Shown: positions 1 through 24,018 of the stretch, piece by piece | Position numbering within the stretch: position 1 is the stretch's first letter | How the letters are laid out: each line of letters opens with the position of its first letter | Source: Candidatus Woesearchaeota archaeon | GTDB taxonomy: Archaea; Nanobdellota; Nanobdellia; Pacearchaeales; GW2011-AR1 | Length of the DNA stretch: 27,457 nucleotides | Direction of reading: 5' to 3' | Assembly: GCA_964598985.1 (NCBI GenBank) | Contig: CAZRDP010000001.1 | Span: forward strand, 99,730 to 127,186 | Position numbers and translations under genes: made by a program | Notes under the pieces: model-generated | What the model saw: the letters and a program-made list of their open reading frames with translations, nothing else | The model's database searches: none | What the model was told of the DNA's origin: nothing

Positions 1-1284
1 AATTATACTTCGGAAAAAAAGAAAGATATACGTGAAAAAAATTACATTAAAATTGCTGCGAAAATGCAAAACATCCTCACTAGAATTAGGCTGAATCTTT
101 CAAGAAATAAAAATAAAATATTTGTCTCTGGCGGAGAACCATATTTTGGTAACCTGACAAAAGAACTTCTCAAAAATAAAAAAAACAGAGTATTCAATTT
201 TAGCGGGAAATTGAGCAGAAGTTTTTTTGTGGGTTTGAATTATCTTCCTTTTTATGAATTCAAAGGAATAAAATTTTCTGAAGAAGAACTTAAAAAGGAT
301 GCGATTGATTTGGAAAAAAATATTGATAAAAATTTTTCAAAAATTTACGGAATCGAGACAGAAATAGAAAATTCGATTAAAAAAAAGTTAATTTCGATTG
401 TAAATACAAATTCAGAGGTTTTTTCAAAATTGGAGGAATTTTATTCGTTTATAAAAGATGAAAAAATTGATTTAATTATAACCAGCGAAGAAAGTGATCC
501 TTTATCCAGGGGCATTATTCAAATTGCAAATAAATTCAATGTTCCGACGATGATTTTTCAACACGGATTATTTATGAGCGAAATTGCAACATACTCAAAT
601 GCAGATTATGTGTTTTCGATAGAGGAAAAACAGAAAGACCTTTATCTTAAAAGTTCTTCAAAAAAAACAAAAGTAAATGTTATGGGAATACCCCGTTATG
701 ATTCGTTCAAAAAAACAGAAAAACAAAGAAAAGAAAAAATAATTTTGTACATTATGGAAGTTTCAAGGAAACTTGATATGGTTCCGGAAACACATCTTAC
801 AAAAAAACAGCAAAAGGAAATTTTGAGAATTATTTTTAATGTTATGAAAAAATTCAAAGATTATAAATTGATAGTTAAAACGAGACCGGGGTGGGAAATG
901 GCAGGACTTCCGGAAAGTATTGCAAAAGAACAAAATTTCAAAAATGCGGAATTTATAGAAAAAACGGATAATAATCAACTTTTGAATGATTCTGATTTGA
1001 TAATTGTGAATTTTTCCAGCATGGGATACGAAGCACTTCTCCTCAAAAAACCAGTTATTTCACTTTCATATAAAAATGTAAAAAAGTTTAACCCTTATGA
1101 AAAAATAGAAGTCGTTGAAAAAGTTTATACAGAAAAAGAATTGTACGATTCAATTGTAAAAAATTTGAAAAAAGGCGGGTATAGAGAAGAGGGTTTGGAA
1201 AAATATTTTGAAGTTAATAAAAATAGTTCTCAAGATATTTCTAATTTTATAAACAAAGTTTTAAACATGTATAAAAGAAGATAA
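1..1284 (+). CDS. GT-B-fold surface-polysaccharide biosynthesis protein (CDP-glycerol glycerophosphotransferase / UDP-GlcNAc 2-epimerase-like fold), 5'-truncated by the window
   Basis: Frame 1 is open from base 1 (NYTSEKKKDIREKNYIKIAAK) into the listed Met at 64. Motifs IFQHGLF, VMGIPRYD and DLIIVNFSSMGYEALLLKKPVI; lies in a sugar cluster. Confidence 0.65.
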   Translation, partial: NYTSEKKKDIREKNYIKIAAKMQNILTRIRLNLSRNKNKIFVSGGEPYFGNLTKELLKNKKNRVFNFSGKLSRSFFVGLNYLPFYEFKGIKFSEEELKKDAIDLEKNIDKNFSKIYGIETEIENSIKKKLISIVNTNSEVFSKLEEFYSFIKDEKIDLIITSEESDPLSRGIIQIANKFNVPTMIFQHGLFMSEIATYSNADYVFSIEEKQKDLYLKSSSKKTKVNVMGIPRYDSFKKTEKQRKEKIILYIMEVSRKLDMVPETHLTKKQQKEILRIIFNVMKKFKDYKLIVKTRPGWEMAGLPESIAKEQNFKNAEFIEKTDNNQLLNDSDLIIVNFSSMGYEALLLKKPVISLSYKNVKKFNPYEKIEVVEKVYTEKELYDSIVKNLKKGGYREEGLEKYFEVNKNSSQDISNFINKVLNMYKRR

Positions 1285-1316
1285 ATGCTTTTAAAGGACT
1301 TGTTTTTAGAAAAAAT

Positions 1317-2336
1317 ATGCTGAAAGAAATAAAAGGAAAGAGAATCTTAATTACCGGCGGAGCAGGATTTTTAGGAAGAGCGTTGACAAGAGAGTTATTG
1401 AAATATGAACCTCAAAGTATAAGAATCTTCAGCAGAGACGAATTTAAGCATTATAAAATGAGCCAGGAATTTGGGCTTGAAAGCACGAAAGGACCGCTAA
1501 GATTTTTGCTCGGCGACGTAAGAGATTATGAAAGATTAAAAAGAGCGACGAAAGGATGCGATATTGTTATACATGCTGCAGCTCTGAAAAGAATTGACAT
1601 GATTGAATACAACGTCGGAGAAGCGATAAACACAAACGTTTTCGGAAGTTTAAATGTTATGAAAGCATGCATTGAAAATAATGTAAAAAAAGTAGTATTC
1701 GTTTCAACGGATAAAGCGTGTCTGCCGATTAATACTTATGGTGCAACAAAATTTCTGGCAGAAAGAATTTTTATTGAAGGGAATTACAGCAAAGGTAAAT
1801 CTCCGACGTGTCTTGTGGGGGTAAGATATGGCAATGTTATAAACAGCACAGGTTCAGTCATTCCGTTTTTTTTGGAGAAAATAAATAAAGGGGAGCCTTT
1901 GCCAATCACCGACGATAGAATGACGCGTTTTTTAATAACTGATAAACAGGCAGTAAATTTAATTTTCAATGCAATACTACATGGTGAAGGAGGAGAAATT
2001 TTCGTTCCGAAGTTGCCTTCATTCAATATTAAAGAGTTGGCAAAAGGATTATGTGATTTAAAAGGAAAACCTTTCAAATATGAAATTTCCGGTATAAGAC
2101 CCGGCGAAAAATTACATGAATTTATGGTCAACGAAGCTGAAAGCATAAGAGCAAAAGAATTCCAGAATTTTTTTGTGATAACATCGGAAGTCGAAAAATA
2201 TATTAAGAAAAAAAATAAATTTTTAGAAAAAGGGAAACCAATGACAAAAAAAACTTACAGTTCTGAAGATTCATTAATTTCGGGAAACGAATTATTGGAA
2301 TATCTTAAAAAGATTAAAATTTTGGATAAAGAATGA
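1317..2336 (+). CDS. pseB: UDP-N-acetylglucosamine 4,6-dehydratase (PseB/FlaA1-like, Polysacc_synt_2)
   Basis: TGGAGFLG, FSRDEFKH, HAAALK, STDKACLPINTYGATK, RYGNV..S.GSVIP, TDDRMTRF, GIRPGEKLHE. Confidence 0.88.
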   Translation: MLKEIKGKRILITGGAGFLGRALTRELLKYEPQSIRIFSRDEFKHYKMSQEFGLESTKGPLRFLLGDVRDYERLKRATKGCDIVIHAAALKRIDMIEYNVGEAINTNVFGSLNVMKACIENNVKKVVFVSTDKACLPINTYGATKFLAERIFIEGNYSKGKSPTCLVGVRYGNVINSTGSVIPFFLEKINKGEPLPITDDRMTRFLITDKQAVNLIFNAILHGEGGEIFVPKLPSFNIKELAKGLCDLKGKPFKYEISGIRPGEKLHEFMVNEAESIRAKEFQNFFVITSEVEKYIKKKNKFLEKGKPMTKKTYSSEDSLISGNELLEYLKKIKILDKE

Positions 2337-3235
2337 AAATCCTCATAACAGGCGCGAAAGGACTTCTCGGTTCAAATTTATGCCTCATGTATTCTGAAAA
2401 AAATGAAGTTATAGCGACTGGAATAAACAAACCGGATTTTAATTTCTGCAAAAATTATGAAATGGATATAACAAAAAAAAAGGACTTGAAAATTATTGAA
2501 AAAGAAAAACAGGACTTAGTTATAAATTGCGTCGCTATAACAGATATGACTCTTTGCGAGGATAATCCAAAATTAGCTGAAGATGTAAACGCTTTTGGCG
2601 CAAAGAATCTTGCAGAAATTTGCAAAGATAATAACATTTTTTTTATTCACATTTCAACCGACGCTGTGTATGGTGACGGGAAAGGAAATTATAATGAAAA
2701 AGATAAAACAAACCCTTTGGGAGTTTAGGGAAAAACAAAATTATGGGGGGAAAAATATGTTGAAGAAATCGGAGGAAAATACGCCATTGTAAGAACAACC
2801 ATATACGGTTGGAATCACCTTGATAAATTTAGTTTGGGCGAATGGGTTTTGGATAAACTTGAAAAAAATGAAACTTTCAAAGGATTTACGGATATAAAAT
2901 TTACACCAATATTGACGACTAATCTTGGAGAAGCATTGTTAGAAATATACCATAAAAATTTTAATGGGATTTTGAATGTTGCGAGTCCGGATGTCTGCAC
3001 TAAATACGAATTTGCAAAAAAGATTGCAGAGGTTTTTGGAAAAAATTCTAATTTGGTTACGCCTGCTTCTTCGGATGAATTTAATTTTAAAGCAAAAAGG
3101 GCAAAAGACATGTATTTGAATTGTGATAAGGCGCAGAGATTATTGAAGACAAAACTTCTTAATGTAGAAGATGGTCTGAAAGAATTCAAAAATCTAAGAG
3201 AAGATGGATTTTTGGAGAGATTAAAGAATATATAA
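2333..3235 (+). pseudogene. RmlD-like (dTDP-4-dehydrorhamnose reductase family) SDR, 300 codons with one in-frame TAG at 2726-2728
   Basis: ORFs 2333..2728 and 2834..3235 share a frame. Read-through gives GAKGLLG...HISTDAVYGD...NPLGV*GKTKLWGE...VRTTIYG...FTPILTTNL..., so the TAG replaces the Tyr of YxxxK. Confidence 0.85.
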
Positions 3236-3279
3236 TTTTTTACGATAAAATTTAAAAATATCGAACATAGAGAATATTT

Positions 3280-4344
3280 ATGATAAAAATAGGAAATTCT
3301 ATAATTGGAGAGAATCAGCCGACTTATTTTATTGCAGATATAGCGGCAAACCACGACGGAGATTTGGAAAGAGCAAAAAAACTTATTTATCTTGCAAAAG
3401 AAAACGGAGCGAACGCGGTGAAGTTCCAGCATCATGATGTAAAACATTATGTAAGTAAAAAAGGTTTTGAATCTCTCGGGGGGCAATTCTCGCATCAGGC
3501 GAAATGGGAAAAACCTGTTTTTGAAGTTTACAAGGATGCAGAAGTCCCACTTGATTGGACACCCCTGTTAAAAAAATATTCTGACGAAATCGGGATTGAT
3601 TTTTTTTCAACCCCGTACGACCTAAATATGGTTGACCATTTAGACCCTTATGTTCCTGCTTTTAAAATCGGCTCAGGGGACATTAATTTTCCTCAAATGC
3701 TTGAGAAAGTTGCAAAAATGGGAAAACCTGTTTTACTTGCCACCGGCGCTTCAACTATTGAAGAAGTTGTTAAAGCGGTTGATACAATTAAAAAATATAA
3801 CAAAGACATAATTCTGTTTCAATGCAATACAAATTATACAGGAAGCGAAGATAATTTTAAGTACATTAATTTAAATGTGCTTAATGCATACAAAAAATTA
3901 TTTCCGGAGATAATTCTGGGGCTTTCCGACCACACCCCAGGGGATGTTACAGTTTTGGGGGCAGTTTCATTGGGTGCGAGAACAATTGAAAAACATTTTA
4001 CCGACGACAATTTAAGAGCAGGACCGGACCATCCTTTCTCTATGAACCCTGTTTCATGGAAAAATATGGTTGATAGAACAAGAAAACTTGAAAGTTCTTT
4101 GGGAACTTCAACGAGAAAAGTTGAAGATAATGAAAAAGAAACAGTCGTACTTCAGAGAAGATGCATACGGGCAAATCGGGATATTAAACAAGGGGAAAAA
4201 ATTTTGAAAGAATATTTGGAATACCAGAGACCTGCCCCTGCAGGAAGTTTGAGTCCGGAGAATGAAAGATATATCGTCGGAAAAAAAGCATTAAAAGATA
4301 TTCTAAAAGAGGAACCATTTAAATTAGAGCACTTGGGGGAATAA
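3280..4344 (+). CDS. neuB: Nonulosonic acid synthase (NeuB/PseI family) with C-terminal SAF domain
   Basis: IADIAANHDGD, AVKFQ, FSTPYD, FKIGSGD, GLSDHT, IEKHFT, PDHPFS; SAF-like C-terminus RRCIRANRDIKQGE. Confidence 0.92.
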   Translation: MIKIGNSIIGENQPTYFIADIAANHDGDLERAKKLIYLAKENGANAVKFQHHDVKHYVSKKGFESLGGQFSHQAKWEKPVFEVYKDAEVPLDWTPLLKKYSDEIGIDFFSTPYDLNMVDHLDPYVPAFKIGSGDINFPQMLEKVAKMGKPVLLATGASTIEEVVKAVDTIKKYNKDIILFQCNTNYTGSEDNFKYINLNVLNAYKKLFPEIILGLSDHTPGDVTVLGAVSLGARTIEKHFTDDNLRAGPDHPFSMNPVSWKNMVDRTRKLESSLGTSTRKVEDNEKETVVLQRRCIRANRDIKQGEKILKEYLEYQRPAPAGSLSPENERYIVGKKALKDILKEEPFKLEHLGE

Positions 4345-5027
4345 TGAAAGTTCTTGTTGTTGCAGCGCACCCCGACGACGAAGTTTTAGGTTGCGGAGCA
4401 ACTATTGCAAAGCACGCAAAAAAAGGAGACGAAGTTGAAATTTTAATTTTAGGCGACGGAATTACTGCAAGATATGAAGAACATGAATTAAACAATCCTG
4501 AAGTTTTAAAACAAGTTTCCGAGATAAATAAACATGCTTTAAACGCCGGGAAAATGTTGGGTGCAAAAAAAGTTGAACTAAAAGGTTTTCATTGCGGAAG
4601 ATTTGATAGATATCCTTTAATTGATATAACAAAAATTATTGAAAAAAAACTTAACGATTTTAAACCGGAAAGGGTTTACACGCATGGGCCTGTTGACGCA
4701 AATAATGACCACAAGATTGTTTTCAAAGCTGTTCAAATTGCAACAAGACCCATACGGCGAAATTATTTTGTTAAGGATGTTTTCATAATGGAAAATTTAT
4801 CCGGTTTAGAATGGGGGTTTGACGGAAGTTTCAGACCTGATTATTACAATGATGTTGAAAAAACAATTGGACTTAAAATAAAAGCAATGCAAGAATATTC
4901 CGGAGAAAAAAGAAAATTTCCGCATCCGCGGTCTGACAAAGCAATAATTGCGCTATCAATAAAGAGGGGTTCTGAATCCGGCTTGGATAATGCTGAAGCA
5001 TTTAAAGTTTTGAGGATGATAAATTAA
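4344..5027 (+). CDS. PIG-L/LmbE-family N-acetyl sugar deacetylase
   Basis: AAHPDDEVLGCG, THGPVDANNDH, FPHPRS, AEAF; 1-nt stop/start overlap with neuB. Confidence 0.88.
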   Translation: MKVLVVAAHPDDEVLGCGATIAKHAKKGDEVEILILGDGITARYEEHELNNPEVLKQVSEINKHALNAGKMLGAKKVELKGFHCGRFDRYPLIDITKIIEKKLNDFKPERVYTHGPVDANNDHKIVFKAVQIATRPIRRNYFVKDVFIMENLSGLEWGFDGSFRPDYYNDVEKTIGLKIKAMQEYSGEKRKFPHPRSDKAIIALSIKRGSESGLDNAEAFKVLRMIN

Positions 5028-5028
5028 A

Positions 5029-5682
5029 ATGAAAAAATTAGAAAAAGTTGTTGCTGTAATCCCTGCTTTTAACGAAGAAGCAACTATAGAAAAAATTTTG
5101 AAAGAAACAAGAAAATACGTCGATGAACAAATTTTGATAGATGACTGTTCAAGTGATAATACTCACAAAATCGCAGAAAAATATGCATTAGTTTTCAGAA
5201 ATAAAAATAATTTGGGATATGATGCATCGTTGAACAAAGGATTTGAATTGGCAAAAAGAAATGGAGCAAGTATAATAATTACACTTGATGCTGACGGACA
5301 ACATAATTCTGATGAGATACCAAATTTTGTCAACCCGATAAAAAATAATGCGGCGGATATCGTCGTGGGAATAAGACCTTTTACAAACAGATTCATGGAA
5401 AAAATATTTCGGAAGTATGGGTTAAAAAAATTTGGGGTTGATGACCCCCTTTGCGGAATGAAGGCCTACAATATTAAAGTGTATGAAAACGCAGGTTTTT
5501 TTGACAATATGAAATCTATCGGGACTCAACTTACATTTTTATCCTCATTAAAGGGATATAGAGTTCTAAGTATTCCAATAAATTATAACAAGAGAAAAGA
5601 TACTCCGCGTTTTGGAAATCAGATAAAAGGAAATATTAAATTATTTTACGCATATTTAAGATTAAAAAAATATTTTAGATGA
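5029..5682 (+). CDS. Glycosyltransferase family 2 (DPM1-like)
   Basis: IPAFNEE, IDDCSSD, NLGY, TLDADGQH, DIVVGIR, DPLCGMKAY. Confidence 0.88.
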   Translation: MKKLEKVVAVIPAFNEEATIEKILKETRKYVDEQILIDDCSSDNTHKIAEKYALVFRNKNNLGYDASLNKGFELAKRNGASIIITLDADGQHNSDEIPNFVNPIKNNAADIVVGIRPFTNRFMEKIFRKYGLKKFGVDDPLCGMKAYNIKVYENAGFFDNMKSIGTQLTFLSSLKGYRVLSIPINYNKRKDTPRFGNQIKGNIKLFYAYLRLKKYFR

Positions 5683-6374
5683 AAATGAAAAATGTAATAC
5701 TTACAATAAAGTCATGGAATGTTGAAAATGCTAGAAAGTTAAAACTTGAAGATAAAGAAAACGAATGGAGCATATTTACAGAACATAGCCCTGAGACATA
5801 CAAAAAAATAGAGTCCATCAATCCGAATTATATTTTTGTCCCGCATTGGTCATGGATAATTCCGGAAAGCATATGGAAAAATTATGATACAGTCGTTTTT
5901 CATCCGACGGACTTGCCTTACGGAAGAGGCGGAACTCCTATCCAAAATTTAATTATACGCGGGATTTACAAAACAAAACTAAGTGCGTTGAAAGTTAACG
6001 GGCAAATTGACGCCGGTCCAATATATCTTAAAAAAGATTTTGATATGTCTGAAGGGAATATTGATAAAATATTAAGGCGTGCTTCAAAGATTTATTTTGA
6101 AGAGATGATTCCTGAAATAATAAATAACAGAATATCTCCAAGACCTCAGGAAGGGGAAGTTGTAATTTATAAAAGAAGAAAACCCGAAGATAGTGATTTA
6201 AATTCGATTTTGAAAGAAAAAAAATCTGACCCGCGAAAAATTTATGATTTTATACGGATGCTCGACGGCGAAGGTTATCCCAGAGCATATCTTAATTTGG
6301 GAGATAAAAGAATAGAATTTTATGACGCCCGTCTCCTTGAATATAAGGTTAGTTCTGAAGTAGTGATTAAATAA
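5679..6374 (+). CDS. Formyltransferase (Fmt-like, probably a sugar N-formyltransferase)
   Basis: FVPHWSWII, FHPTDLPYGRGGTPIQNLI, IDAGPIY, YDFIRMLDGEGYPRAY; sugar-cluster context. Confidence 0.82.
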   Translation: MKMKNVILTIKSWNVENARKLKLEDKENEWSIFTEHSPETYKKIESINPNYIFVPHWSWIIPESIWKNYDTVVFHPTDLPYGRGGTPIQNLIIRGIYKTKLSALKVNGQIDAGPIYLKKDFDMSEGNIDKILRRASKIYFEEMIPEIINNRISPRPQEGEVVIYKRRKPEDSDLNSILKEKKSDPRKIYDFIRMLDGEGYPRAYLNLGDKRIEFYDARLLEYKVSSEVVIK

Positions 6375-6404
6375 ATTTTTAATTAGAAGATACATTAAAT
6401 AAAT

Positions 6405-7088
6405 ATGAAAAAAGAAAAAATCATTGCAATCATTCCGGCGCGCGGAGGAAGCAAGGGGATTCCCAGAAAAAATTTGAAATTGATAAACAGAAAACCTCTT
6501 CTTGCATATCCTATTGAAGCTGCACTCGGAGTTGAAGAAATTGACAGAGTAATCGTCTCAACTGACGACGATGAAATAGCAGAAACCGCGAAAAAATTTG
6601 GAGCGGAAGTCCCTTTCATGAGACCAGAAGAATTATCCGGGGACGAAGTTTTGACTGTTCCGGTTCTTCAGCACGCTGTTGATTGGCTAAAGGAAAATGA
6701 AAATTACGACGCAGACATAATCATTCTTCTTTATGCGACTTCGCCAATGCTGACAAGTGGGAAAATAAAAGAAGGTATTGAAAAAATAAATGGGCATAAT
6801 GATGTTGATTCAGTGGTCAGTGTTTGTAAAGATGACAAATACCACTGGAAAGAAGAAGGCGGAAAGCTAATCAGATTTTATCCTATGGAAATTATGCCGA
6901 GACAAATGATGACTCCTTTGCTAAGAGAAAATGGGGCATTGTATATTGTGAGAAAGGAAATAATGAAAAAAACAGGGAGATACATTGGCGGAAATATAAG
7001 ATATATCCTAATGAAAGAAAAAGAAACCTGGGATATAGATACCGAAGAAGATTTTGAAATTATTGAAGAGCTGATGAAGAAGAATTAA
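6405..7088 (+). CDS. neuA: CMP-nonulosonic acid synthetase (NeuA/PseF cytidylyltransferase)
   Basis: IIPARGGSKGIPRKN, VSTDD, AEVPFMRP, LYATSP, ENGALY, DIDTEEDF. Confidence 0.92.
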   Translation: MKKEKIIAIIPARGGSKGIPRKNLKLINRKPLLAYPIEAALGVEEIDRVIVSTDDDEIAETAKKFGAEVPFMRPEELSGDEVLTVPVLQHAVDWLKENENYDADIIILLYATSPMLTSGKIKEGIEKINGHNDVDSVVSVCKDDKYHWKEEGGKLIRFYPMEIMPRQMMTPLLRENGALYIVRKEIMKKTGRYIGGNIRYILMKEKETWDIDTEEDFEIIEELMKKN

Positions 7089-8439
7089 TTTTTTTTCTGT
7101 AAAAAACCATCCCCAAAACGGAAACAGTTTTTGAAATCAGCGTCGCGGTTGTTGCACCGATAACAGCGTATATTGAACCGAATTTTAATAAAAATGTTAC
7201 TAATGAAAATGCAAGAACAACATTAAGTATCGTCGTAACAATAGAAAGATTGGCCAAAAATTTTGTTTTTCCCATTGAAGTGAAATATGAAATATAAATT
7301 CCTTCAAGAGACATTATCATGATTAAAGGTGAGAATACCTTTAGGACAATCACTGAACTGAGATAATTATTCCCCAAAATAATTTTAATAATCAAAGGGG
7401 CGAAAATAAAAACCCCTGCTGAAGCAAAAAAAGAAATTAAAAATATAAGCCGGGAAGATTTTTTCAATCCGAGCTCCAACTTTTTTTTGTCTAACTTACT
7501 AAAAATCGGATACATCACAATTGAAAATGCTAAAAATGCCATCAAAGAGCCAATAATACTGCTCGCTCCGCTGTAATAACCAATATATTCTCCTGCAACG
7601 AATTTACCAAGGATAAGGAGGTCTATATAACTGTAAAGTGTCGTCGATAAAATTGTGATAACTAAAGGAAGCATAAACCGGTTTATTTGTTTTTTTTCCT
7701 CCTCAGAAATTTTATTATTTGGTATTGACTTGAAAGATATTTCCTTTTTTGAAAATAGAAACATAAATACTAGGGTGGCTAAATATGCTATTGAAATTCC
7801 AAAGGCAAGAATGAAAAGTTTTTTTTCCTGAGTCATTGCAGAATCAACTAACAAAAAGAAAACTCCAAGAACAAAAACAAAACGCGATATTTGAAAAAAT
7901 ATTTCTTTGAAGAATACTGGCTTGAGATTATTTGCTGCTCTGAATCTGTATTCGAGAAAATTTGTCATACCATAAAGAATAATTATTAGAGGACCAAAGA
8001 GTAAAGCCGAAAAAATCGGTTTTTCATAATAATTTTGAGCTATAAATTTTGAAGTAAATATTAAGAATAAAGATACAGATAAAATAAGAATTATCTTCAA
8101 TTTGAACAAATATTTAAGAAATCTGGCCGCCTTTTTTTTCTTTTCAAGATTTGGCGAGATAAACTTTATTATCGCTGAACTTATTCCTGGGTCAGTGAAA
8201 GAAATCATTAAAAAAATTGTACCAATTACAAGATTGTAAAGTCCAAATAATTCAGGCATTAAAATCCTGGCTAAAATTATAGTAAAAATTAGAGCAAGAA
8301 ATTTTCCGGCAAGAGCAATTCCAAACTGATATGCGCTGTTCTTAATCATCAAACCCATATTTCCCGAAAAATCTCTTTTTCTAAAACGATTAAAAATATT
8401 TTTAAAATCATTTTCCTCCCTGGTTATGAAATTATCCAT
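7060..8439 (-). CDS. Wzx/MATE-like oligosaccharide flippase
   Basis: 459 aa with many TM segments; ILARILMPELFGLY, LYSYIDLLILGKF, GYYS; overlaps the neuA 3' end by 29 bp. Confidence 0.85.
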   Translation of the reverse strand: MDNFITREENDFKNIFNRFRKRDFSGNMGLMIKNSAYQFGIALAGKFLALIFTIILARILMPELFGLYNLVIGTIFLMISFTDPGISSAIIKFISPNLEKKKKAARFLKYLFKLKIILILSVSLFLIFTSKFIAQNYYEKPIFSALLFGPLIIILYGMTNFLEYRFRAANNLKPVFFKEIFFQISRFVFVLGVFFLLVDSAMTQEKKLFILAFGISIAYLATLVFMFLFSKKEISFKSIPNNKISEEEKKQINRFMLPLVITILSTTLYSYIDLLILGKFVAGEYIGYYSGASSIIGSLMAFLAFSIVMYPIFSKLDKKKLELGLKKSSRLIFLISFFASAGVFIFAPLIIKIILGNNYLSSVIVLKVFSPLIMIMSLEGIYISYFTSMGKTKFLANLSIVTTILNVVLAFSLVTFLLKFGSIYAVIGATTATLISKTVSVLGMVFYRKKINSSSSALQ

Positions 8440-8928: not shown

Positions 8929-10461
8929 TTAGCCCTTCTGAATTCTCTTTATAATCTCGCCGAATGCAGGTCTTGTTATTAAAATTCCGAGAGTTAAACC
9001 GATTATTGTCGTGGATGCAAATCCTTTTAGCAATCCTCCCCCGGCAAGATAAAGAGGAATCATTGCAGCAACTAATGTAAGATAGGCACCCATTATAACG
9101 GTGAAAGCATTTTTTATTCTTGCCTTTAAACTCATGTGAACTTCACGTTTTGTTTCATCCAAAATAACAATCTGGTCATTAACTCCCGTACCTATTGCTG
9201 CGAGAATACCTGCAATCGCCGCCAAATCAAGATTTATATCAAGAAGGGCCGCAACACCGAGGGTGATTATGATTTCAGAGATACCCATGCTCAAAACAGC
9301 GACGGATTGTTTGAATTTTTTGTATTTAATGAATATAACTATCGCAACGCTTACCAATGCAACTAACCCAGCAACGAATATAGTCGTAACAAATTTCCCT
9401 CCTAAATTTGGGGAAATAACGTCTAGATTCAATACTTCTAATTCGTAAGGAAAGCTTCCTGTAATAAGCACTGTCTGAAGTTTGTGCATTTGAGATTCTG
9501 CGACGTCGTATGCATCTTCCTGGGTTTCACCGGATCCTGAACCCGAAATTGATATTTGTGTTGCAACCTGCCCCTTGAGGTCTTCGCTTATCAACAAAGT
9601 GTCGACGAGCTGGTCATCCAAATACAAATCAAGAGGTTTTGAAAGATATCCCGGATTTGAAGAGTTTACAGGAATTCTGTTTGTGATATCTGCATGTCTT
9701 TTAGCTGCTTCTTCGCTCAAATAAATTGAGAATTTAAAATTGCAAAAATACCCGGAAGAACTTTGCTGACAGGTTTCTATGTAAGCGCATGTTGCATCAT
9801 TTCTGCATACGGAAGCAATATCTTTATTTCCTCCGACGAAAACCGTTTCATTTCCAATTTTGGCCTCGAATTTTCCCTGGCTTTCAATCATATCCTTCAA
9901 ATCTTCAGGGGTTGCTCCGGCGATTTCCATTCGGACATAATTATTTCCTGCGAGGTCGGAAAACGGCGTAACTTTTATATCTTTTAAACCATAGTTATTT
10001 ACTCTGTTTTCAATTACATCAGCCAAATCTGTTGCTTCCTGAGACGTCAATTCAACACCTTCGGCACGAATTATTGCTCTTGCCCCGCCAGATAAATCTA
10101 ATCCGGTTTTTATACTCGTCTTCGGTAATTTTGAAACAGTTATGTCGGGAGCATTCTTCGAGAATAGAATTATTTCTGAATCCTTTGTTGTGACTATCGT
10201 TTTTACATCTTTTTCCGACGGGAACTTGCTTTGAATATAAGATGAATAATCCTGAGCATTTTCTATTTTTTGATTATCTATTCCGATAATAATTTGCCCT
10301 GCTCTCAATCCTGTTTCAAATGCAGTTGAATTTGAACCCACACTTGTTACTAAAACACCTTTTTGAAATAATGTGAATCCGTTTGGAGATATGAACACGG
10401 ACAACAAAGCAAGAACCAGCACTATCAAATACAACCAAATTTTAAATCCGAGTTTTTTCAT
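8929..10461 (-). CDS. secD: Protein translocase subunit SecD (archaeal type)
   Basis: GLDLSGG, large extracytoplasmic loop, IAGILAAIGTGVNDQIVI, LKGFASTTIIG..ITRPAF. Confidence 0.92.
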   Translation of the reverse strand: MKKLGFKIWLYLIVLVLALLSVFISPNGFTLFQKGVLVTSVGSNSTAFETGLRAGQIIIGIDNQKIENAQDYSSYIQSKFPSEKDVKTIVTTKDSEIILFSKNAPDITVSKLPKTSIKTGLDLSGGARAIIRAEGVELTSQEATDLADVIENRVNNYGLKDIKVTPFSDLAGNNYVRMEIAGATPEDLKDMIESQGKFEAKIGNETVFVGGNKDIASVCRNDATCAYIETCQQSSSGYFCNFKFSIYLSEEAAKRHADITNRIPVNSSNPGYLSKPLDLYLDDQLVDTLLISEDLKGQVATQISISGSGSGETQEDAYDVAESQMHKLQTVLITGSFPYELEVLNLDVISPNLGGKFVTTIFVAGLVALVSVAIVIFIKYKKFKQSVAVLSMGISEIIITLGVAALLDINLDLAAIAGILAAIGTGVNDQIVILDETKREVHMSLKARIKNAFTVIMGAYLTLVAAMIPLYLAGGGLLKGFASTTIIGLTLGILITRPAFGEIIKRIQKG

Positions 10462-11360
10462 TTTGCTTTTTCCTTACGCAGAACATGCCATTTAATTATT
10501 GAAACATTTGTTATCCAAGTGTTAATTAAGTCAAAGGACAACCCGATTGAAATTATTAAAAAAATCTGAGTCAGCACTGCTGAAAAAGATTTTACGACGA
10601 AGAGTGCCGCGACGACGGCTAGCAAAGATACCAAAGTCATTGTTATTCCGGTTTTAAATGCACCATAAATTTTCTCATTTAAATTTCCGTCGTGTCTTTT
10701 CAAAACCCTATCTGTGAGAAGTATATCTGTGTCGACTGAATAACCAATAAGCATGAGTACTGCAATTATCCCTCCCGTTGAAACTTTAACACCCAATAAA
10801 TTTATTGCCGTAATAGTCATAATAATGTTGATAAAAACACAAAAGATAACTGTAATTGAAGGTGTAAACTTTTTGAATAAAATAAAAACCACGACGGCCA
10901 TAAGCGCAAATGCGAGTAGAACTGCTATAATTAATTGTTTGTAAAAATCAGATGTGAAAGAAGATTCGGAAAATTCAAAACTACTATTATCTTCGGTGAG
11001 GGGGTGCCCAAAATAATCTTCTAAAATATTTCTTGTTGAATCTCCGTCCAAGGTTGTTTCAATAATTACGGCTATCTGCTCTCCCGTTACTAAATCGGAA
11101 ACCTCCCTGATGTTTAAATCGGGAAGTTTGTTACCGAGATCCTGATTTAGAATATCTATATCCTGTTTTTCATAGATTGTTACGGAAGTTCCACCAAGAA
11201 GAGAAATATCTTTGTGAATGATATCTCCGGTTTGTGAATAAAAAATTATAAGATAAATTACAGAAAACAAAATAATTAATCCTGGGATTATCAATAATTT
11301 TTTGTAATGTCTGTCGTGCCAATTCTTTTTTGTATTTTCCTGTGTTTGATTTTCTTCCAT
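10458..11360 (-). CDS. secF: Protein translocase subunit SecF (archaeal type)
   Basis: DISLLGGT, LMLIGYSVDTDILLT, GITMT; ATGA overlap with secD. Confidence 0.92.
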   Translation of the reverse strand: MEENQTQENTKKNWHDRHYKKLLIIPGLIILFSVIYLIIFYSQTGDIIHKDISLLGGTSVTIYEKQDIDILNQDLGNKLPDLNIREVSDLVTGEQIAVIIETTLDGDSTRNILEDYFGHPLTEDNSSFEFSESSFTSDFYKQLIIAVLLAFALMAVVVFILFKKFTPSITVIFCVFINIIMTITAINLLGVKVSTGGIIAVLMLIGYSVDTDILLTDRVLKRHDGNLNEKIYGAFKTGITMTLVSLLAVVAALFVVKSFSAVLTQIFLIISIGLSFDLINTWITNVSIIKWHVLRKEKAK

Positions 11361-15463: not shown

Positions 15464-16003
15464 ATGGCACGCGAAGAAAATGCAATAATACTAGAATACT
15501 TGCCGAACGGTTATCCGTTGTCGAAGAAAATGCTTCCTATAGCGCAAGCTATTGGTGAAAATAATTTAATACTTCTTGAATTGATTCCGAGAAAAGGCAT
15601 TCAGTTGAATTTAGGCGAAGTTGTTTACATCGGCGAAGGAAAAAGAGATAAAATTTATTATATAAAAGGAAGATTGCACCGCGAGAAATTGACAGAGACC
15701 GCAAAAAAACAATTAGAAGAATTTATAAAGGATATTGTTAAAAAAAGAGAGAAAGAATTCGTGAATTTTTTCAATAAAGCTGATGCAATAAATAAGAGAA
15801 CTCATCAGATTGAATTGATTCCGGGCATGGGAAAAAAACACATGCAGGAAATACTTAAGCAAAGGAAAGAAAAAGAATTTGAGTCGTTTGAAGACATGAA
15901 AAGCAGAATTCCGAATCTTCCAGACCCTGAAAAAGCCGTCGAGAAAAGAATTTTTCAGGAATTAACAAACCTCGAACGACAAAATTTATTTTGCGTAAAT
16001 TAA
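15464..16003 (+). CDS. DUF655 putative nucleic-acid-binding protein
   Basis: AQAIGE..LILLEL, RTHQIELIPGMGKKH, FESFED; canonical position after rpoF. Confidence 0.88.
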   Translation: MAREENAIILEYLPNGYPLSKKMLPIAQAIGENNLILLELIPRKGIQLNLGEVVYIGEGKRDKIYYIKGRLHREKLTETAKKQLEEFIKDIVKKREKEFVNFFNKADAINKRTHQIELIPGMGKKHMQEILKQRKEKEFESFEDMKSRIPNLPDPEKAVEKRIFQELTNLERQNLFCVN

Positions 16004-16004
16004 A

Positions 16005-16502
16005 ATGGAACAAAAACAAACACAACAGAAAAGCACAGAAAGAGTAGTCAGAATTCTGTCAAAAGATATAGAAGGAAAAACAACATTATATTCGGGGCTG
16101 ACAAAAATAAAAGGAGTCTCGTGGGGGCTTTCAAATGCAGTTTGCCACATACTGAAAATAGACAAAACAAAAAAAATAGGAGAATTGTCTCCGGAAGAAA
16201 TAAAAAAAATTGAAGAATTTATTAAAAATCCGGACGTTCCGATTTTTTTGATGAACAGAAGAGGAGATTTGGAAACGGGCGAGGACAAACATCTTCAGGG
16301 AACAAATCTTGAATTGAGAAAAGATTTTGATATAAAAAGATTAAAACAAATAAGAAGTTACAGAGGATTAAGGCATAGTTTAGGACAACCGGTGAGAGGT
16401 CAGAGAACAAAGGCGCATTTCAGAACTAACAGAAGAAAAGGTTCGGGAATAAAGAGAAAAGCACAAAAAACTGAAAAACCTTATGAAGGAGGAAAAAAAT
16501 AA
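16005..16502 (+). CDS. rps13: 30S ribosomal protein S13
   Basis: LTKIKGV, NRRGDLETG, IRSYRGLRH..GQPVRGQRTK. Confidence 0.96.
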   Translation: MEQKQTQQKSTERVVRILSKDIEGKTTLYSGLTKIKGVSWGLSNAVCHILKIDKTKKIGELSPEEIKKIEEFIKNPDVPIFLMNRRGDLETGEDKHLQGTNLELRKDFDIKRLKQIRSYRGLRHSLGQPVRGQRTKAHFRTNRRKGSGIKRKAQKTEKPYEGGKK

Positions 16503-16511
16503 TTTTTTAAA

Positions 16512-16997
16512 ATGAAAAGAAAACATAAAAATTATTCGCGACCGAAAAGACCTTTTGACAAAACAAGAATTGAAGAAGAAAAAGTTATAGTAAAAGAATA
16601 CGGACTGAAAAATAAAAGAGAAATATGGAAAGCTGAAGCAAAAGTAAAACTTATAAGAGAAAGAGCAAAAAAAATGGTTTCGGCGAAAGAAGAAGACAGA
16701 AAAGAATTTTTTAAAAGATTAAATGAAATGGGAATAAAAGTAAACTCCATTGCTGACGTGCTTTCGTTGACAAAAGAAGACTGGTTGAAAAGAAGGTTGC
16801 AAACTGTCGTCGTCAAAAAAGAACTCGCGAAAACTCCAAAAGAATCGCGACAAATGATAACACACAAAAAAATTCTTGTTGATGGGAAAGCTGTTAACAT
16901 TCCGTCATACATCGTCCCTGTGGAATTTGAAGAAAAAATTTCTGTAAAGCGTGTAAACCCTAAAGCAAAAAAAATAGAAGGAAAACAAAATGCCTAA
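16512..16997 (+). CDS. rps4: 30S ribosomal protein S4
   Basis: YGLKNKREIW, RRLQTVV, RQMITH..I.V.G...NIPSYIV. Confidence 0.95.
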   Translation: MKRKHKNYSRPKRPFDKTRIEEEKVIVKEYGLKNKREIWKAEAKVKLIRERAKKMVSAKEEDRKEFFKRLNEMGIKVNSIADVLSLTKEDWLKRRLQTVVVKKELAKTPKESRQMITHKKILVDGKAVNIPSYIVPVEFEEKISVKRVNPKAKKIEGKQNA

Positions 16998-17478
16998 GAG
17001 TGAAACAAAAGAAATCACCGACGAGAAAATTGATATTTCTGAAGATGGCGAAGAAATACAAGCTGAAATCAAGGAAGAAAAAATTTTGAAACCGAAGAAA
17101 GAAAAAGAAACGGAATCTATAGTTCACATTTATACTTCTTTCAACAATACAATTGTCCACGTTACGGATATGTCCGGAAGAACCATTGCAAAAGTTACAG
17201 GAGGAATGGTAACAAAACATTCACGTCTTAAAGCTAATCCGACAATTGCGATGTTTATTGCAAAACGCGTCAGTGAAGCGATGAAAGAAAAAGGTATAAA
17301 ATCAATTTATGTCAGAATAAGAGCTAAAACAGGAAATCCGACTCCTGGACCGGGAGCAAATGCCGTCGTCAAAAGTTTAACAAAAGAAGGATTCAAGATA
17401 CTCAACATATTAGACACAACAAGAATTCCGAGAGGCGGTCCTAAAAAGAAAGGAGGCAGAAGAGGAAGACGGCCTTAA
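16990..17478 (+). CDS. rps11: 30S ribosomal protein S11 with a charged N-terminal extension
   Basis: HIYTSFNNTIVHVTD, PGPGA, DTTRIPRGG, GGRRGRR. Confidence 0.95.
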   Translation: MPKSETKEITDEKIDISEDGEEIQAEIKEEKILKPKKEKETESIVHIYTSFNNTIVHVTDMSGRTIAKVTGGMVTKHSRLKANPTIAMFIAKRVSEAMKEKGIKSIYVRIRAKTGNPTPGPGANAVVKSLTKEGFKILNILDTTRIPRGGPKKKGGRRGRRP

Positions 17479-17513
17479 GTAAACTTATTAAATTAAAAAA
17501 ATAATAAAATAAA

Positions 17514-18221
17514 ATGGAAAAAATAAATGAAAAAGAAAGTAAAATTGTGTTCAGAGCGGAAATTGAAGACAGCCTTGCCAACGCAATAAGAAGGTCCATT
17601 TTCTTAATTCCCGTCGCTGCTGTCGATGAAGTTGAAATTTCAAAAAATGATTCGCCTTTGTACGACGAAACGATTGCACACAGAATAGGTCTTATCCCTA
17701 TAAAACACAGCGCAAAAAAAGAAGGGAAATTAAAATTGAAATCAAGCAGAGAAGGTTTTGTTTATTCAGGGGACATGGAAGGAGATGTGAAAGTTGTTTA
17801 TGATAAAATTCCAATTACTCTTTTGAGCAAAGGACAGGAAATAGAATTAACAGCGACGACAAAATTAGGAAAGGCATCTGAACACTCAAAATTTTTGCCC
17901 GGATTATTTGTTTACAGAATTGCTTATGAATTAATAGTTGATAAAGATGTTGCGGAAAAAGTTAAACAAATTGCGCCGTATGCTGAAGTAAATATTAAGG
18001 GAAATAAAGCAGTAATTTTGGATAATAAAGAAAGAGAGGTTGCTGATATTTGCGAGGGTATTTGCGATAAGGAAGGAAAGGAGATGGAGGTTAAACCCAC
18101 GAAAGAATTGGTTATAACAATTGAATCGTTCGGGCAGATTGGAGTTAAAGATATTTTTACAAAAGCAGTTGATGCTTTGAAGAATGAACTTAATGAGTTT
18201 TCTAAAAAGTTAAGCAAATAA
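17514..18221 (+). CDS. rpoD: DNA-directed RNA polymerase subunit D (Rpo3)
   Basis: LANAIRR, NDSPLYDETIAHRIGLIP, LLSKGQEI, G...EHSKF.PG, IESFGQ. Confidence 0.94.
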   Translation: MEKINEKESKIVFRAEIEDSLANAIRRSIFLIPVAAVDEVEISKNDSPLYDETIAHRIGLIPIKHSAKKEGKLKLKSSREGFVYSGDMEGDVKVVYDKIPITLLSKGQEIELTATTKLGKASEHSKFLPGLFVYRIAYELIVDKDVAEKVKQIAPYAEVNIKGNKAVILDNKEREVADICEGICDKEGKEMEVKPTKELVITIESFGQIGVKDIFTKAVDALKNELNEFSKKLSK

Positions 18222-21651: not shown

Positions 21652-24018
21652 TTACTCCACAATTATTTTTTGTGAAAAAGAGCTTTTGTCTGCAATAAAT
21701 TGCAGCAGATACATCCCGGGTTTAATTTCCGGCAAAGAGAATTCAAAATAGGACGGCACATTTTCAGATTCAGATATTACCTGCCCGCTTAAAGAAGTCA
21801 TCCTAAAAGAAAGTTTATTTGAATTATGACAAATGAACAAAACTTCATTCACGGGATTCGGATAAACCTGAACTGAATTCAGCGAACCATCTATTTCTAT
21901 TCCGTTAACCGAAGAATTCTGAATGATTACTGCTGAAACATTTATTTCCCCCGATGAAACGAAAATCGTGGCAATCCTTGAACTCTCAGAATCATTGCGT
22001 GTAAATGTTGCAGTTATGGTGTCGTCATAAATTCCTTCAAAAGGATTTACGGTTAACCATTCAGCGTCGTCGGATATTTCCCAACCGGAATTGGAATTAA
22101 TGCTCAAAAAAATACTCCCTGCATCCGGAGGCACTTCCTGATAATCCGGCGTGATATACAGAGTTACAGCATCAGGTTCTGATTGAGTTAAAGTTACGGT
22201 TTCTGATACTCCGGAACCCGACGCTGTAATGTTAGCAGTGCGGGAATTTGTTGAAGAATTTGCATCATAAGAAACACTTATTGTACTGCCGTCGACTTTT
22301 GTTGCAGTCAACCAGGATGCATCATCGGAAACTGACCACACGACATTTGATGAAACTTCGAACGTTGCTGTTCCTGATGAAGAATTTACTGTTTTGCTGT
22401 TCGGAGAAACATTAATATAAAATGTCCCATTTTGAACAACCGTTACAACTTCGGATAAACCTCCGGTCCCATTCACTGTAATATTTGAAATGCGGGAATT
22501 TGTTGAAGTATTCTCGTTGTAATTTATTGTAATCGTGTAATCGTCGACTTTTGTTGCAGTCAACCAGGATGCATCGTCGGAAACATCCCAATAAACATTG
22601 GCACTTACATTAAATGAATTTGTTCCCGAAGACGAATTTACCTCCCGGGTATTCGGAGATACATCAAGATAAGCTTCAGAACCTGATTGAATCAAACTGA
22701 CGTTTTCAGAAACTCCGGAACCTGATGCACTTATATGGCCTGTTCTGGAATTCGAATATGGATTTTCGTCGTAAGTCACAGTTATTGTGCTTTCGTTTGT
22801 TTTCGTTGCAGTCAGCCAGGATACATCGTCGGAAACCGACCACACTACATTTGAATTTACATTGTAAGTAGTCGTGCCTGGTGATGAACCGACAGTTTTA
22901 CTGTTTGGATTCACGTCGAGATATAATGCAATCCCCGATTGAGTTAGTGTAACTGTTTCGAATATTCCCCCTGATGAAGCGGTTATATTCGCTGTTCTCG
23001 AAGACGTTGAAGAATTCTCGTTGTAACTTACAGTTATTGTGCCGCCGTCGGTTTTTGTTGCGGTTAACCATGATGCATCGTCAGAAACATTCCAGCTAAC
23101 ATTTGAACTTATATTAAAATAAGAGGTTCCCGAAGACGAATTTACTTCAAGGTTGTTTGGAGATACATCAATGGAAGGTGATGCTCCTGCTTGTTGCACA
23201 ATAACCGTTTCAGACAAGTAACTTGTATAAGCAGTTATATTGGCTCTACGTGAACTTGTTGAAGTATTCTCATTGTAACTTACAGTTATTGTGCCGCCGT
23301 CGGTTTTTGTTGCAGTTAACCATGATGCATCGTCGGAAACATCCCAGCTAACATTCGTATGTACTTCAAATACCCCTAATCCGGGTTGTGCACTTACAAT
23401 GGGAAGACCATCAGGGTCTACATCGAGATAAGAGTATTGAAAAGTTAACTTGGGTTTGTAAGTTGAACTTCCTTCTTTTGTATAAAAGAAACATGCATTC
23501 CCATCAGGAGTAATTTCTCCATCAATTATTCCAAACGGACTTAAGCCAAACCCGTGGTTTGAACGCCCCTCTTCTAACCATTGCTTAACTATTGGAGTCA
23601 TATTAATAGATAAACTGGTTCCTCCTGTTCCGGCAAAAAAATATTGATCGAAAAAGGAAGTATTAGGAGCATTATTCCACGTTACCGAACTCTCAGACCA
23701 AGATTGAGTAATTCTGAAAACCTCCCCCACGACACGTTCGACAGGAATTCCGGGATAATAGTATAGTTTTAATTCGGCACTATGCACGTGAACCTGCCCC
23801 GTGAAAGAACCAAGGTCAAATTTAAAAATTGGAGCGCATGCCCTCCCATCAGGTTCCAAACCAAGAGGAACTAAAGCATCATTTCCCCAATTAGATGAAG
23901 GAGCGGCTTCACTTAAAAATGCATCTGCGACAAGTGTGGCTACCCTCGTACTTTGGGAGATACAATTATTGAAAATTAAATTTCCAATAAATACTGAAAT
24001 TAAAATTAAATTTTTCAT
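21652..24018 (-). CDS. Secreted protein: DNRLRE-like domain + 6 BACON repeats + T9SS (Por) C-terminal sorting domain
   Basis: ADAFLSE...NWG...FKFDL...SAELKLY; six W.(V/I)SDD..WLT repeats; C-terminus VYPNPV..VLFI...SGQVI...GMYLLQ...QKIIVE. Confidence 0.85.
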   Translation of the reverse strand: MKNLILISVFIGNLIFNNCISQSTRVATLVADAFLSEAAPSSNWGNDALVPLGLEPDGRACAPIFKFDLGSFTGQVHVHSAELKLYYYPGIPVERVVGEVFRITQSWSESSVTWNNAPNTSFFDQYFFAGTGGTSLSINMTPIVKQWLEEGRSNHGFGLSPFGIIDGEITPDGNACFFYTKEGSSTYKPKLTFQYSYLDVDPDGLPIVSAQPGLGVFEVHTNVSWDVSDDASWLTATKTDGGTITVSYNENTSTSSRRANITAYTSYLSETVIVQQAGASPSIDVSPNNLEVNSSSGTSYFNISSNVSWNVSDDASWLTATKTDGGTITVSYNENSSTSSRTANITASSGGIFETVTLTQSGIALYLDVNPNSKTVGSSPGTTTYNVNSNVVWSVSDDVSWLTATKTNESTITVTYDENPYSNSRTGHISASGSGVSENVSLIQSGSEAYLDVSPNTREVNSSSGTNSFNVSANVYWDVSDDASWLTATKVDDYTITINYNENTSTNSRISNITVNGTGGLSEVVTVVQNGTFYINVSPNSKTVNSSSGTATFEVSSNVVWSVSDDASWLTATKVDGSTISVSYDANSSTNSRTANITASGSGVSETVTLTQSEPDAVTLYITPDYQEVPPDAGSIFLSINSNSGWEISDDAEWLTVNPFEGIYDDTITATFTRNDSESSRIATIFVSSGEINVSAVIIQNSSVNGIEIDGSLNSVQVYPNPVNEVLFICHNSNKLSFRMTSLSGQVISESENVPSYFEFSLPEIKPGMYLLQFIADKSSFSQKIIVE

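Follow-up and report, generated by a model that had tools for sequence, protein, structure and literature searches.

Gene content of the cluster

The DNA analyzed here, referred to as the window, is a 27,457-nucleotide stretch of Candidatus Woesearchaeota archaeon (contig CAZRDP010000001.1, positions 99,730 to 127,186). Its beginning holds a putative nonulosonate biosynthesis cluster, which is the subject of this work. As judged by open reading frames (ORFs) and profile searches, the cluster consists of eight genes, all located on the plus strand (window 1-7088); they encode, in order, one GT-B protein, one PseB-like dehydratase, one RmlD-like reductase, one NeuB-family synthase, one PIG-L deacetylase, one GT2 protein, one Fmt-like protein and one NeuA-type enzyme. 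With Pfam and NCBIfam profiles, neither a DegT aminotransferase nor a GNAT protein was found among the eight genes. An earlier note on this DNA had described the same order from GT-B to neuA, without pseC or pseH; the ORFs and profiles bear it out with two corrections, namely that the GT-B gene is incomplete and that the reductase is one frame broken by a TAG codon.

The PseB-like gene (1317-2336) encodes a predicted UDP-GlcNAc 4,6-dehydratase of the inverting type. It matches Polysacc_synt_2 with 315.7 bits; its best NCBIfam match is TIGR03589 with 347.5 bits, which is under the equivalog cut-off of 407.75, and the FnlA model gives 241.5 bits. The protein is 40-47% identical to the PseB proteins of the bacterial module described below, which passes the cut-off at 510 bits.

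The second core enzyme is an RmlD-like, predicted NAD(P)H-dependent 4-ketoreductase (2333-3238), which matches RmlD_sub_bind. It appears as two ORFs (2333-2728 and 2834-3235), but these are one gene, a single frame broken by one TAG at 2726-2728. All 62 homologous reductases in the alignment have a Tyr at the site of this TAG, and all have a Lys four positions further on; therefore, the TAG occupies the position of the catalytic Tyr of the YxxxK motif. Where an extended short-chain dehydrogenase/reductase has its catalytic Tyr, the gene has a TAG codon, with the Lys at +4 retained. No further stop interrupts the other 299 codons, which retain the GxxGxxG, STD and Lys motifs. Genome-wide recoding of TAG was considered and rejected: TAG is an ordinary though rare stop, used by 37 of 401 long ORFs, and it splits 3 of 45 in-frame ORF pairs, showing no enrichment. 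ARAGORN detected 22 tRNAs in the genome, including one tRNA-Leu with anticodon AAG; no suppressor tRNA was present among the 22. When read through, the reductase scores 183.2 bits on TIGR01214, against an equivalog cut-off of 224.05; the reductases of the bacterial module score similarly (about 183-185 bits), and both are RmlD-like without being RmlD. On NF047837, the model for the reductase of the C4-reducing L-sugar pathways, the protein reaches only 15 bits. No other gene of the genome matches RmlD_sub_bind strongly, and there is no second copy of the reductase.

The NeuB-family nonulosonate synthase (3280-4344) passes the gathering score of PF03102 (225.5 versus 22.1 bits). It misses both NeuB_NnaB (TIGR03569, 259.2 versus 399.65 bits) and PseI (TIGR03586, 233 versus 340.25 bits), and it is equidistant from the solved NeuB, PseI and SpsE enzymes (158, 152 and 145 bits, respectively). 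Relatives of the synthase number in the thousands, and those of 56-81% identity are spread over many lineages. In the two closest contigs NeuB is 81% and 80% identical and Fmt is 67% and 61% identical; the 40-kb one of the two also carries a GT2 of 79% identity. No close NeuB relative was found in the GenBank phage collection, where the best match is 29.8% identical. The last gene of the cluster (6405-7088) encodes a NeuA/PseF-like CMP-nonulosonate synthetase; it matches CTP_transf_3 with 102.8 bits and the PseF model TIGR03584 with 166.6 bits, under the cut-off of 205.7.

Between the synthase and the synthetase are one PIG-L/LmbE-family N-deacetylase (4344-5027) and one short protein of the formyltransferase family (Fmt-like, 5679-6374). 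The PIG-L protein passes PF02585 (83 versus 28.2 bits), and the N-terminal AHPDDE metal-binding motif is readable in its translation; it is 42-52% identical to the PIG-L proteins of viral cassettes. The Fmt-like protein passes Formyl_trans_N (33 versus 26.1 bits), covering profile positions 59-157 only, and matches Formyl_trans_C_2 with 53.6 bits. It matches the structural-genomics entry PDB 1ZGH at 2e-71 and is the only Formyl_trans_N gene in the genome. Its family is about 225-235 residues in length and gave 3816 matches. We predict that the Fmt-like protein acts as an N-formyl (or N-acyl) transferase on the deacetylated amine.

The GT2 protein (5029-5682, PF00535 with 95 bits) is short and soluble, 217 residues in length. 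It is of GT-A fold with a DAD motif, and no transmembrane-like window was found in it; its family is almost uniformly 211-227 residues, with few odd lengths (145-239 residues). The AlphaFold2 model has a pLDDT of 94.9. Its VIA Z scores are 23.5 with DPMS, 22.3 with ArnC and 21.8 with the soluble GpgS. Aligned with DPMS (about 355 residues), the protein stops at residue 229 of the latter, and the membrane helices of a polyprenyl-phosphate glycosyltransferase are missing. Close relatives of GT2 adjoin NeuB in one Pseudobdellovibrio locus, one metagenome locus and two archaeal genomes of the same class (loci L079, L154, L273 and L277). A scan of viral contigs with the short-GT2 alignment gave distant partial matches only.

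The first ORF (1-1284) is the C-terminal 427 residues of a GT-B protein of about 576 residues; its homologues are 570-590 residues and are aligned from their residue ~170. One 10-N scaffold gap (G000:C1:99720-99729, L004:894-903) lies just before base 1 of the window and splits the gene. The missing N-terminal 136 residues are located upstream of the gap, where a 170-residue ORF shares 67% identity with the N-terminal part of P0242, the nearest homologue; about 15 codons seem to be lost between the two parts. The protein passes the thresholds of Glyphos_transf (PF04464, 27.4 versus 22.1 bits) and Capsule_synth (25.9 bits), and it also matches BFO_1060 and TIGR04396. On Epimerase_2 it reaches 23.6 bits, under the gathering score of 30.6; the NeuC matches of its homologues are 22-34 bits. 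In the AlphaFold2 model (pLDDT 89.7), the best VIA Z scores are with UDP-GlcNAc 2-epimerases, including the hydrolysing NeuC/SiaA (23.7-20.5), followed by MurG (19.7) and TagF (19.4). A GT-B protein of 546-578 residues, present in 45 of the 64 bacterial modules, is a distant homologue of it (hhalign 93.5%). Membership of the LIC12162 transferase family, as in the SAR11 locus, was ruled out (BLASTP E 0.38). We favor a CMP-nonulosonate transferase for this protein; a NeuC-like UDP-sugar hydrolase is the clearly less probable assignment.

Recurrence of the core genes and of the PIG-L/Fmt pair

To place the cluster among its relatives, we analyzed 80 NeuB loci of species-representative genomes, mostly of Chloroflexota and Acidobacteriota and some of Bdellovibrionota, Desulfovibrionaceae and Pelagibacteraceae; 64 of them are well flanked. 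Within 8 kb of NeuB, all 64 have a cytidylyltransferase; PseB is present in 61, the RmlD-like reductase in 60, both in 57 and DegT in 11. The reductase is located at position -1 relative to NeuB in 53 loci and PseB at -2 in 41. PseB-reductase-NeuB is a conserved syntenic module. Its cultured carriers include Thermanaerothrix solaris and Leptolinea tardivitalis. Instead of GT2, a GT4-like protein holds the slot after NeuB in the bacterial modules; it stands right after NeuB in 61 of the 64 loci, with position +1 counted in 58.

The order differs in an Acidobacteriota-type variant (L060, L068, L070, L074, L084, L088 and L089; Acidobacteriota and related), which reads PseB-DegT-cytidylyltransferase-reductase-NeuB-GT4-CE4 deacetylase-FemAB-like GNAT. 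There, the CE4 deacetylase/GNAT pair stands in for PIG-L/Fmt.

The phylogeny of NeuB was calculated from 109 sequences, drawn from all loci and de-replicated at 80% identity. The NeuB of the window falls inside a clade of 53 rows with an SH-like support of 100, and its nearest rows are viral contigs. Within the clade, 45 rows have the reductase only, five have both reductase and DegT, one has DegT only and two have neither. Outside it, DegT-only rows are the most numerous (32), followed by rows with neither gene (18), with the reductase only (4) and with both (2).

We also collected 160 loci anchored on the Fmt-like family, of which 22 metagenome and 60 viral loci are well flanked. The viral loci were found with an alignment as query; single-protein scans of viral contigs with Fmt and the reductase were uninformative. 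All 22 metagenome loci carry PIG-L and NeuB, and 20 carry DegT; the NeuB proteins in them come from other clades and are 31-35% identical to that of the window. PIG-L is present in 54 of the 60 viral loci. Sixteen viral contigs carry a NeuB of the window clade (58-64% identity): none has DegT, and 12 have PseB and a separate reductase gene. Twelve viral loci repeat the full PseB-reductase-NeuB-PIG-L-Fmt set without an aminotransferase. In one viral locus the order is GT4-Maf, NeuB paralogue, Maf-like, PseB, reductase, NeuB, GNAT, PIG-L, Fmt, one gene of unknown function and cytidylyltransferase. A Pelagibacteraceae single-cell genome has the order NeuB-GT2-PIG-L-Fmt-NeuA. PIG-L and Fmt accompany aminotransferase-type and reductase-type cores alike and thus make up a tailoring unit of general use in nonulosonate clusters.

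The Pelagibacteraceae locus (L048, 121-8030) begins with tandem NeuB paralogues; its NeuA gene is followed by one LIC12162-family transferase (516 bits) and one HisH/HisF-like pair.

Among 40 relatives of the archaeon, no reductase orthologue was found (best identity 31%), and NeuB is present in three, at 26-35% identity. With so few relatives carrying NeuB and none carrying the reductase, the cluster is a sporadic island. Two archaeal relatives of the same class (G266 and G436) have clusters of PseB-reductase-GT2-NeuB type; in one archaeal relative the order is PseB-reductase-GT2-NeuB-X-PIG-L-cytidylyltransferase. The 235-residue gene between NeuB and PIG-L in G266 was considered as Fmt-like and ruled out (hhalign 0.7%).

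As the earlier note had advised, we searched upstream of the cluster and across the genome for pseC, pseH, pseG and neuC; within an assembly estimated to be 85% complete, none was found at a credible score. For PseC/DegT, the best genome-wide match is a partial one on contig C5, with 30 bits on PF01041 and 15.6 bits on TIGR03588. The best PseG match, 13.7 bits against a cut-off of 153.55, is located inside the first ORF of the cluster. PseH is absent from the cluster, and a GNAT gene located 26 kb upstream reaches 25.6 bits on the PseH model (cut-off 93.1). No hydrolysing epimerase of NeuC type was found in the genome; the sole Epimerase_2 gene, 26 kb upstream beside AglB, is of the non-hydrolysing WecB type (213 bits for WecB versus 56 bits for NeuC). 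The dTDP-rhamnose pathway, named in the earlier note as an alternative role for the reductase, likewise finds no partners: RmlC was not found in the genome, and the best RmlB match, 108 bits against a cut-off of 365, is no equivalog.

Predicted route and competing explanations

From these data, we propose the following route. The PseB-like enzyme would convert UDP-GlcNAc into UDP-2-acetamido-2,6-dideoxy-beta-L-arabino-hexos-4-ulose through dehydration and C5 inversion. The RmlD-like enzyme would then reduce the C4 keto group to a hydroxyl, in place of the amination by PseC, yielding UDP-6-deoxy-L-AltNAc or its C4 epimer; if its stereochemistry matches that of RmlD, the product would be UDP-6-deoxy-L-AltNAc, the 4-hydroxy analogue of the PseC product. 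We infer from PseB and RmlD chemistry that the face of attack at C4 decides the skeleton, which would be either a 7-hydroxy analogue of pseudaminic acid (Pse) or of fusaminic configuration. The hexosamine offers a single nitrogen, that of its N-acetylated C2 amine; therefore, deacetylation must come before any new N-acylation. At the UDP-sugar or a later stage, PIG-L would strip the N-acetyl group, and the Fmt-like protein would re-acylate the free amine, most likely with formyl. NeuB-type synthases use the free sugar, so UDP must come off; it may be taken off by the short GT2 or by the GT-B protein with its 2-epimerase-like fold. By their position, the short GT2 and the GT4-like protein are candidates for a PseG-like "transfer to water". 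NeuB would condense the free 6-deoxy-hexosamine with phosphoenolpyruvate (PEP) to a 5-acylamido-3,5,9-trideoxy-non-2-ulosonate (7-hydroxy, 9-deoxy, of fusaminic-acid-type skeleton), and NeuA would form the CMP-sugar. The GT-B protein would transfer the nonulosonate, and Wzx would flip the lipid-linked glycan for AglB-type glycosylation. As predicted from gene content, the cluster would probably give a 7-hydroxy-9-deoxy nonulosonate with an N-acyl group, probably formyl, at C5.

The Pse pathway of Campylobacter jejuni and Helicobacter pylori (PseB-PseC-PseH-PseG-PseI-PseF) shares with the cluster the inverting UDP-GlcNAc 4,6-dehydratase, the PEP-condensing NeuB-family synthase and the type of CMP-activating enzyme. 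The logic is also common, leading from UDP-sugar through free 6-deoxy-hexosamine and nonulosonate to CMP-sugar. Different from the Pse pathway, the cluster has no PseC, PseH or PseG, it has the RmlD-like gene between PseB and the synthase, and it has PIG-L and the Fmt-like gene in addition; its synthase belongs to a separate clade, and its predicted product contains one nitrogen, whereas Pse contains two. The FnlA/FnlB/FnlC, WbjB/C/D and WbvB/WbvR/WbvD pathways resemble the cluster in that UDP-4-keto-6-deoxy-HexNAc from a PseB/FnlA-type dehydratase is then reduced at C4 by a second enzyme. Their products are used directly as UDP-sugars, whereas the pair of the cluster is syntenic with NeuB and the CMP-transferase. 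Moreover, the dehydratase of the cluster is closer to PseB than to FnlA (347 versus 241 bits), and its reductase is RmlD-like, not WbjC/CapF-like (15 bits).

Fusaminic acid of Fusobacterium nucleatum (5-amino-3,5,9-trideoxy-L-glycero-L-gluco-non-2-ulosonic acid) has the skeleton predicted for the cluster, being 9-deoxy and 7-hydroxy with a single N at C5, and an L-configured precursor is what a PseB-type dehydratase followed by C4 reduction is expected to give. In Fusobacterium the nitrogen bears acetimidoyl instead of formyl, and the C4/C7 configuration of the cluster product is not derivable from sequence. The legionaminic-type clusters of Ca. Kuenenia stuttgartiensis and Halorubrum sp. PV6 are similar to the cluster in containing a formyltransferase, alone or paired with a deacetylase; they differ in having LegB and LegC, the latter an aminotransferase, and in leading to 5,7-diamino sugars. 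In Ca. Kuenenia, CMP-nonulosonates with a free amine and with formyl were detected, and a deacetylase and a formyltransferase are present in the Leg-type cluster (preprint 10.64898/2026.04.20.719630). From Halorubrum sp. PV6, 5-N-formyl legionaminic acid is documented, and the leg cluster of this archaeon includes a gene predicted to encode a formyltransferase (PMC6137143); the earlier note had named N-formylated legionaminic acid of a haloarchaeal glycoprotein. Formylated nonulosonates have been seen chemically, also in an archaeon.

Compared across loci, the evidence that the route works without an aminotransferase and exchanges the N-acyl group is strong. That C4 is reduced rather than aminated, as the earlier note had proposed, is supported by the 57 of 64 loci with both PseB and the reductase and by the NeuB clade, in which 50 of 53 rows have the reductase nearby; the broken reductase and the loci with both reductase and DegT hold this part back. 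The proposed exchange of N-acetyl for N-formyl gains from the recurrent partnership of PIG-L/Fmt with NeuB and from the formylated nonulosonates in the literature; the catalytic residues and the formyl donor, considered below, leave the formyl part weaker. For the island as a whole, we read a sporadically acquired DPANN-type surface-glycan region that encodes an aminotransferase-free variant of a pseudaminic-acid-type nonulosonate pathway, and we regard this reading as evenly balanced between right and wrong.

Several observations weigh against it. The reductase is broken as assembled, so that this genome may lack a working pathway; the route here is either recently inactivated, polymorphic in the population or hit by a consensus error. 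The reductase is also only ~33% identical to those of the bacterial modules. Reductase and DegT occur together in about 10 Acidobacteriota loci and in one archaeal relative; since the two can coexist, the "replacement" of amination is not strict. No enzyme can be confidently assigned to UDP removal, as neither PseG nor NeuC was found. The NeuB phylogeny called for in the earlier note did return a distinct reductase-associated clade; its rows are NeuB sequences of the collected loci, labelled by gene context only. The genome (G000) is 695 kb in 41 contigs, and its estimated completeness of 85% bounds every genome-wide negative.

The remaining points concern the acyl group. An Asn-His-Asp catalytic triad is used by GART, FMT and ArnA, with the Asn located two residues before the His. 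Among 25 members of the Fmt-like family, His75 and Asp111 are invariant, and the position two residues before the His is a nearly invariant Val73; the family thus has Val in place of the canonical catalytic Asn. FolD (PF02882) was not found in the genome and FTHFS is represented by a 17-bit fragment only, which leaves the formyl donor without an encoded source. Due to the Val and to the lack of an encoded donor route, formyl transfer is plausible, not secure; it is possible that the donor is taken up from the host, or that the acyl group is other than formyl.

The state of the reductase also raises the question whether the cluster is a decaying remnant, with the reductase a true pseudogene and with a different nonulosonate, or none at all, being made. 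We consider this unlikely. The TAG at the catalytic Tyr is matched by no recoding, no suppressor and no second reductase copy, and the cluster is sporadic among relatives (NeuB in 3 of 40, reductase orthologue in none), all of which a remnant would explain. However, the other 299 codons of the reductase are open with motifs kept, and seven other complete genes (PseB to NeuA, and Wzx) are uninterrupted, the first gene being cut by the scaffold gap only. The stop itself is a single third-position change in a metagenome consensus, which may be an error or a minority allele.

A second explanation places two unrelated pathways side by side: PseB and the reductase would make a UDP-2-acetamido-2,6-dideoxy-L-hexose (of L-RhaNAc, L-QuiNAc or 6-deoxy-L-AltNAc type) for direct use in a glycan, and NeuB/NeuA would use another precursor. 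Reduction of PseB/FnlA-type 4-keto products at C4 is established in the biosynthesis of L-FucNAc, L-QuiNAc and L-RhaNAc, with NF047837 existing as an NCBIfam model, and a WecB-type epimerase is present in the genome. However, that epimerase is non-hydrolysing and lies 26 kb off, next to AglB, and the reductase has 15 bits on NF047837. PseB, reductase and NeuB are neighbours in 57 of 64 loci, which represent several phyla; the module itself includes neither NeuC nor a different precursor gene, and the reductase tracks one NeuB clade. We regard this explanation as improbable.

GT2, PIG-L and the Fmt-like protein could also form an Arn-like lipid-carrier pathway, which would place a formylated amino sugar onto dolichyl phosphate independently of the nonulosonate. 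The structures nearest to GT2 are DPMS and ArnC (Z 23.5 and 22.3), the Fmt-like protein weakly matches ArnA, and an ArnD-like CE4 deacetylase is located 21 kb upstream near AglB. We find such a pathway very improbable, as GT2 has no membrane segment and belongs to a family of ~215 residues, with the soluble GpgS nearly as close (Z 21.8); the Fmt-like gene occurs with NeuB in 22 of 22 metagenome loci and with PIG-L in 54 of 60 viral loci, mostly without GT2; and the ArnA, ArnC and ArnD scores are far under the cut-offs. Least probable of all is a canonical Pse pathway with pseC, pseH and pseG in the unassembled part of the genome: although the genome is only 85% complete and the best NCBIfam matches include PseB, PseI and PseF, NeuB belongs to the reductase-associated clade, apart from the DegT-associated synthases, every Pse equivalog cut-off is missed, and no match of PseC, PseG or PseH grade exists in 695 kb.

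Neighbouring genes and meaning for surface glycans

The cluster is closed by a convergent Wzx-type polysaccharide flippase on the minus strand (7060-8439, Polysacc_synt with 99.3 bits), which has about ten transmembrane-like windows. Directly upstream, on the opposite strand, is a GDP-mannose-type deoxysugar cluster (G000:C1:91347-99227, L001:11348-19228), not pseC/pseH. It contains GDP-mannose 4,6-dehydratase, two methyltransferases (one TylF-like), one NUDIX protein, one cytidylyltransferase-like protein, one sugar C-methyltransferase and one carbamoyltransferase; it is followed by a GDSL protein and a form-III-like RuBisCO, and a second Gmd is located at L001:69-1112. The AglB/STT3 gene lies 27 kb upstream of the window. 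It belongs to a region (G000:C1:70271-78879, L005:8272-16880) with the order AglB/STT3, WecB-type 2-epimerase, GNAT, two CoA-transferase-like subunits, GT4 and ArnD-like CE4 deacetylase. The CE4 enzyme scores 76 bits, far under the cut-off; it could in principle remove N-formyl or N-acetyl after flipping.

In the rest of the window, SecD and SecF are encoded on the minus strand (8929-11360), the SecD-like protein having an N-terminal PDZ domain. The plus strand (15464-18221) carries a block of archaeal type, made up of DUF655, ribosomal proteins S13, S4 and S11 and an RpoD/Rpb3-like subunit; it establishes that the organism is an archaeon. Members of its phylum have genomes of 0.5-2 Mb, in agreement with the DPANN host proposed in the earlier note. 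On the minus strand (21652-24018) is a 788-residue protein with six BACON repeats and a C-terminal Por_Secre_tail domain of type IX secretion system (T9SS) type, which is unusual for an archaeon.

Nonulosonic acids cap microbial surface glycans; they govern phage adsorption, immune recognition and symbiont-host contact. To our knowledge, the characterised nonulosonate routes are those to Neu, Leg and Pse only. Our literature searches found no paper describing a PseB + reductase + NeuB route, trideoxy nonulosonate biosynthesis or fusaminic acid biosynthesis. We tentatively propose, as somewhat less than an even prospect, that PseB, the RmlD-like reductase and the NeuB proteins of the reductase-associated clade make up an undescribed route to 5-amino-3,5,9-trideoxy (fusaminic-acid-type, 7-hydroxy) nonulosonates, which would be widespread in Chloroflexota, Acidobacteriota, SAR11, marine viral contigs and DPANN archaea; PIG-L/Fmt would yield a 5-N-formyl form unreported for this class. 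The module offers a concrete enzyme set for such sugars, kept in most of the 64 well-flanked loci and in a dozen or more viral contigs. In the archaeon itself, the stop at the catalytic Tyr of the reductase could act as a surface-sugar switch. For DPANN archaea, the cluster points to surface sugars that are laterally acquired and switchable.

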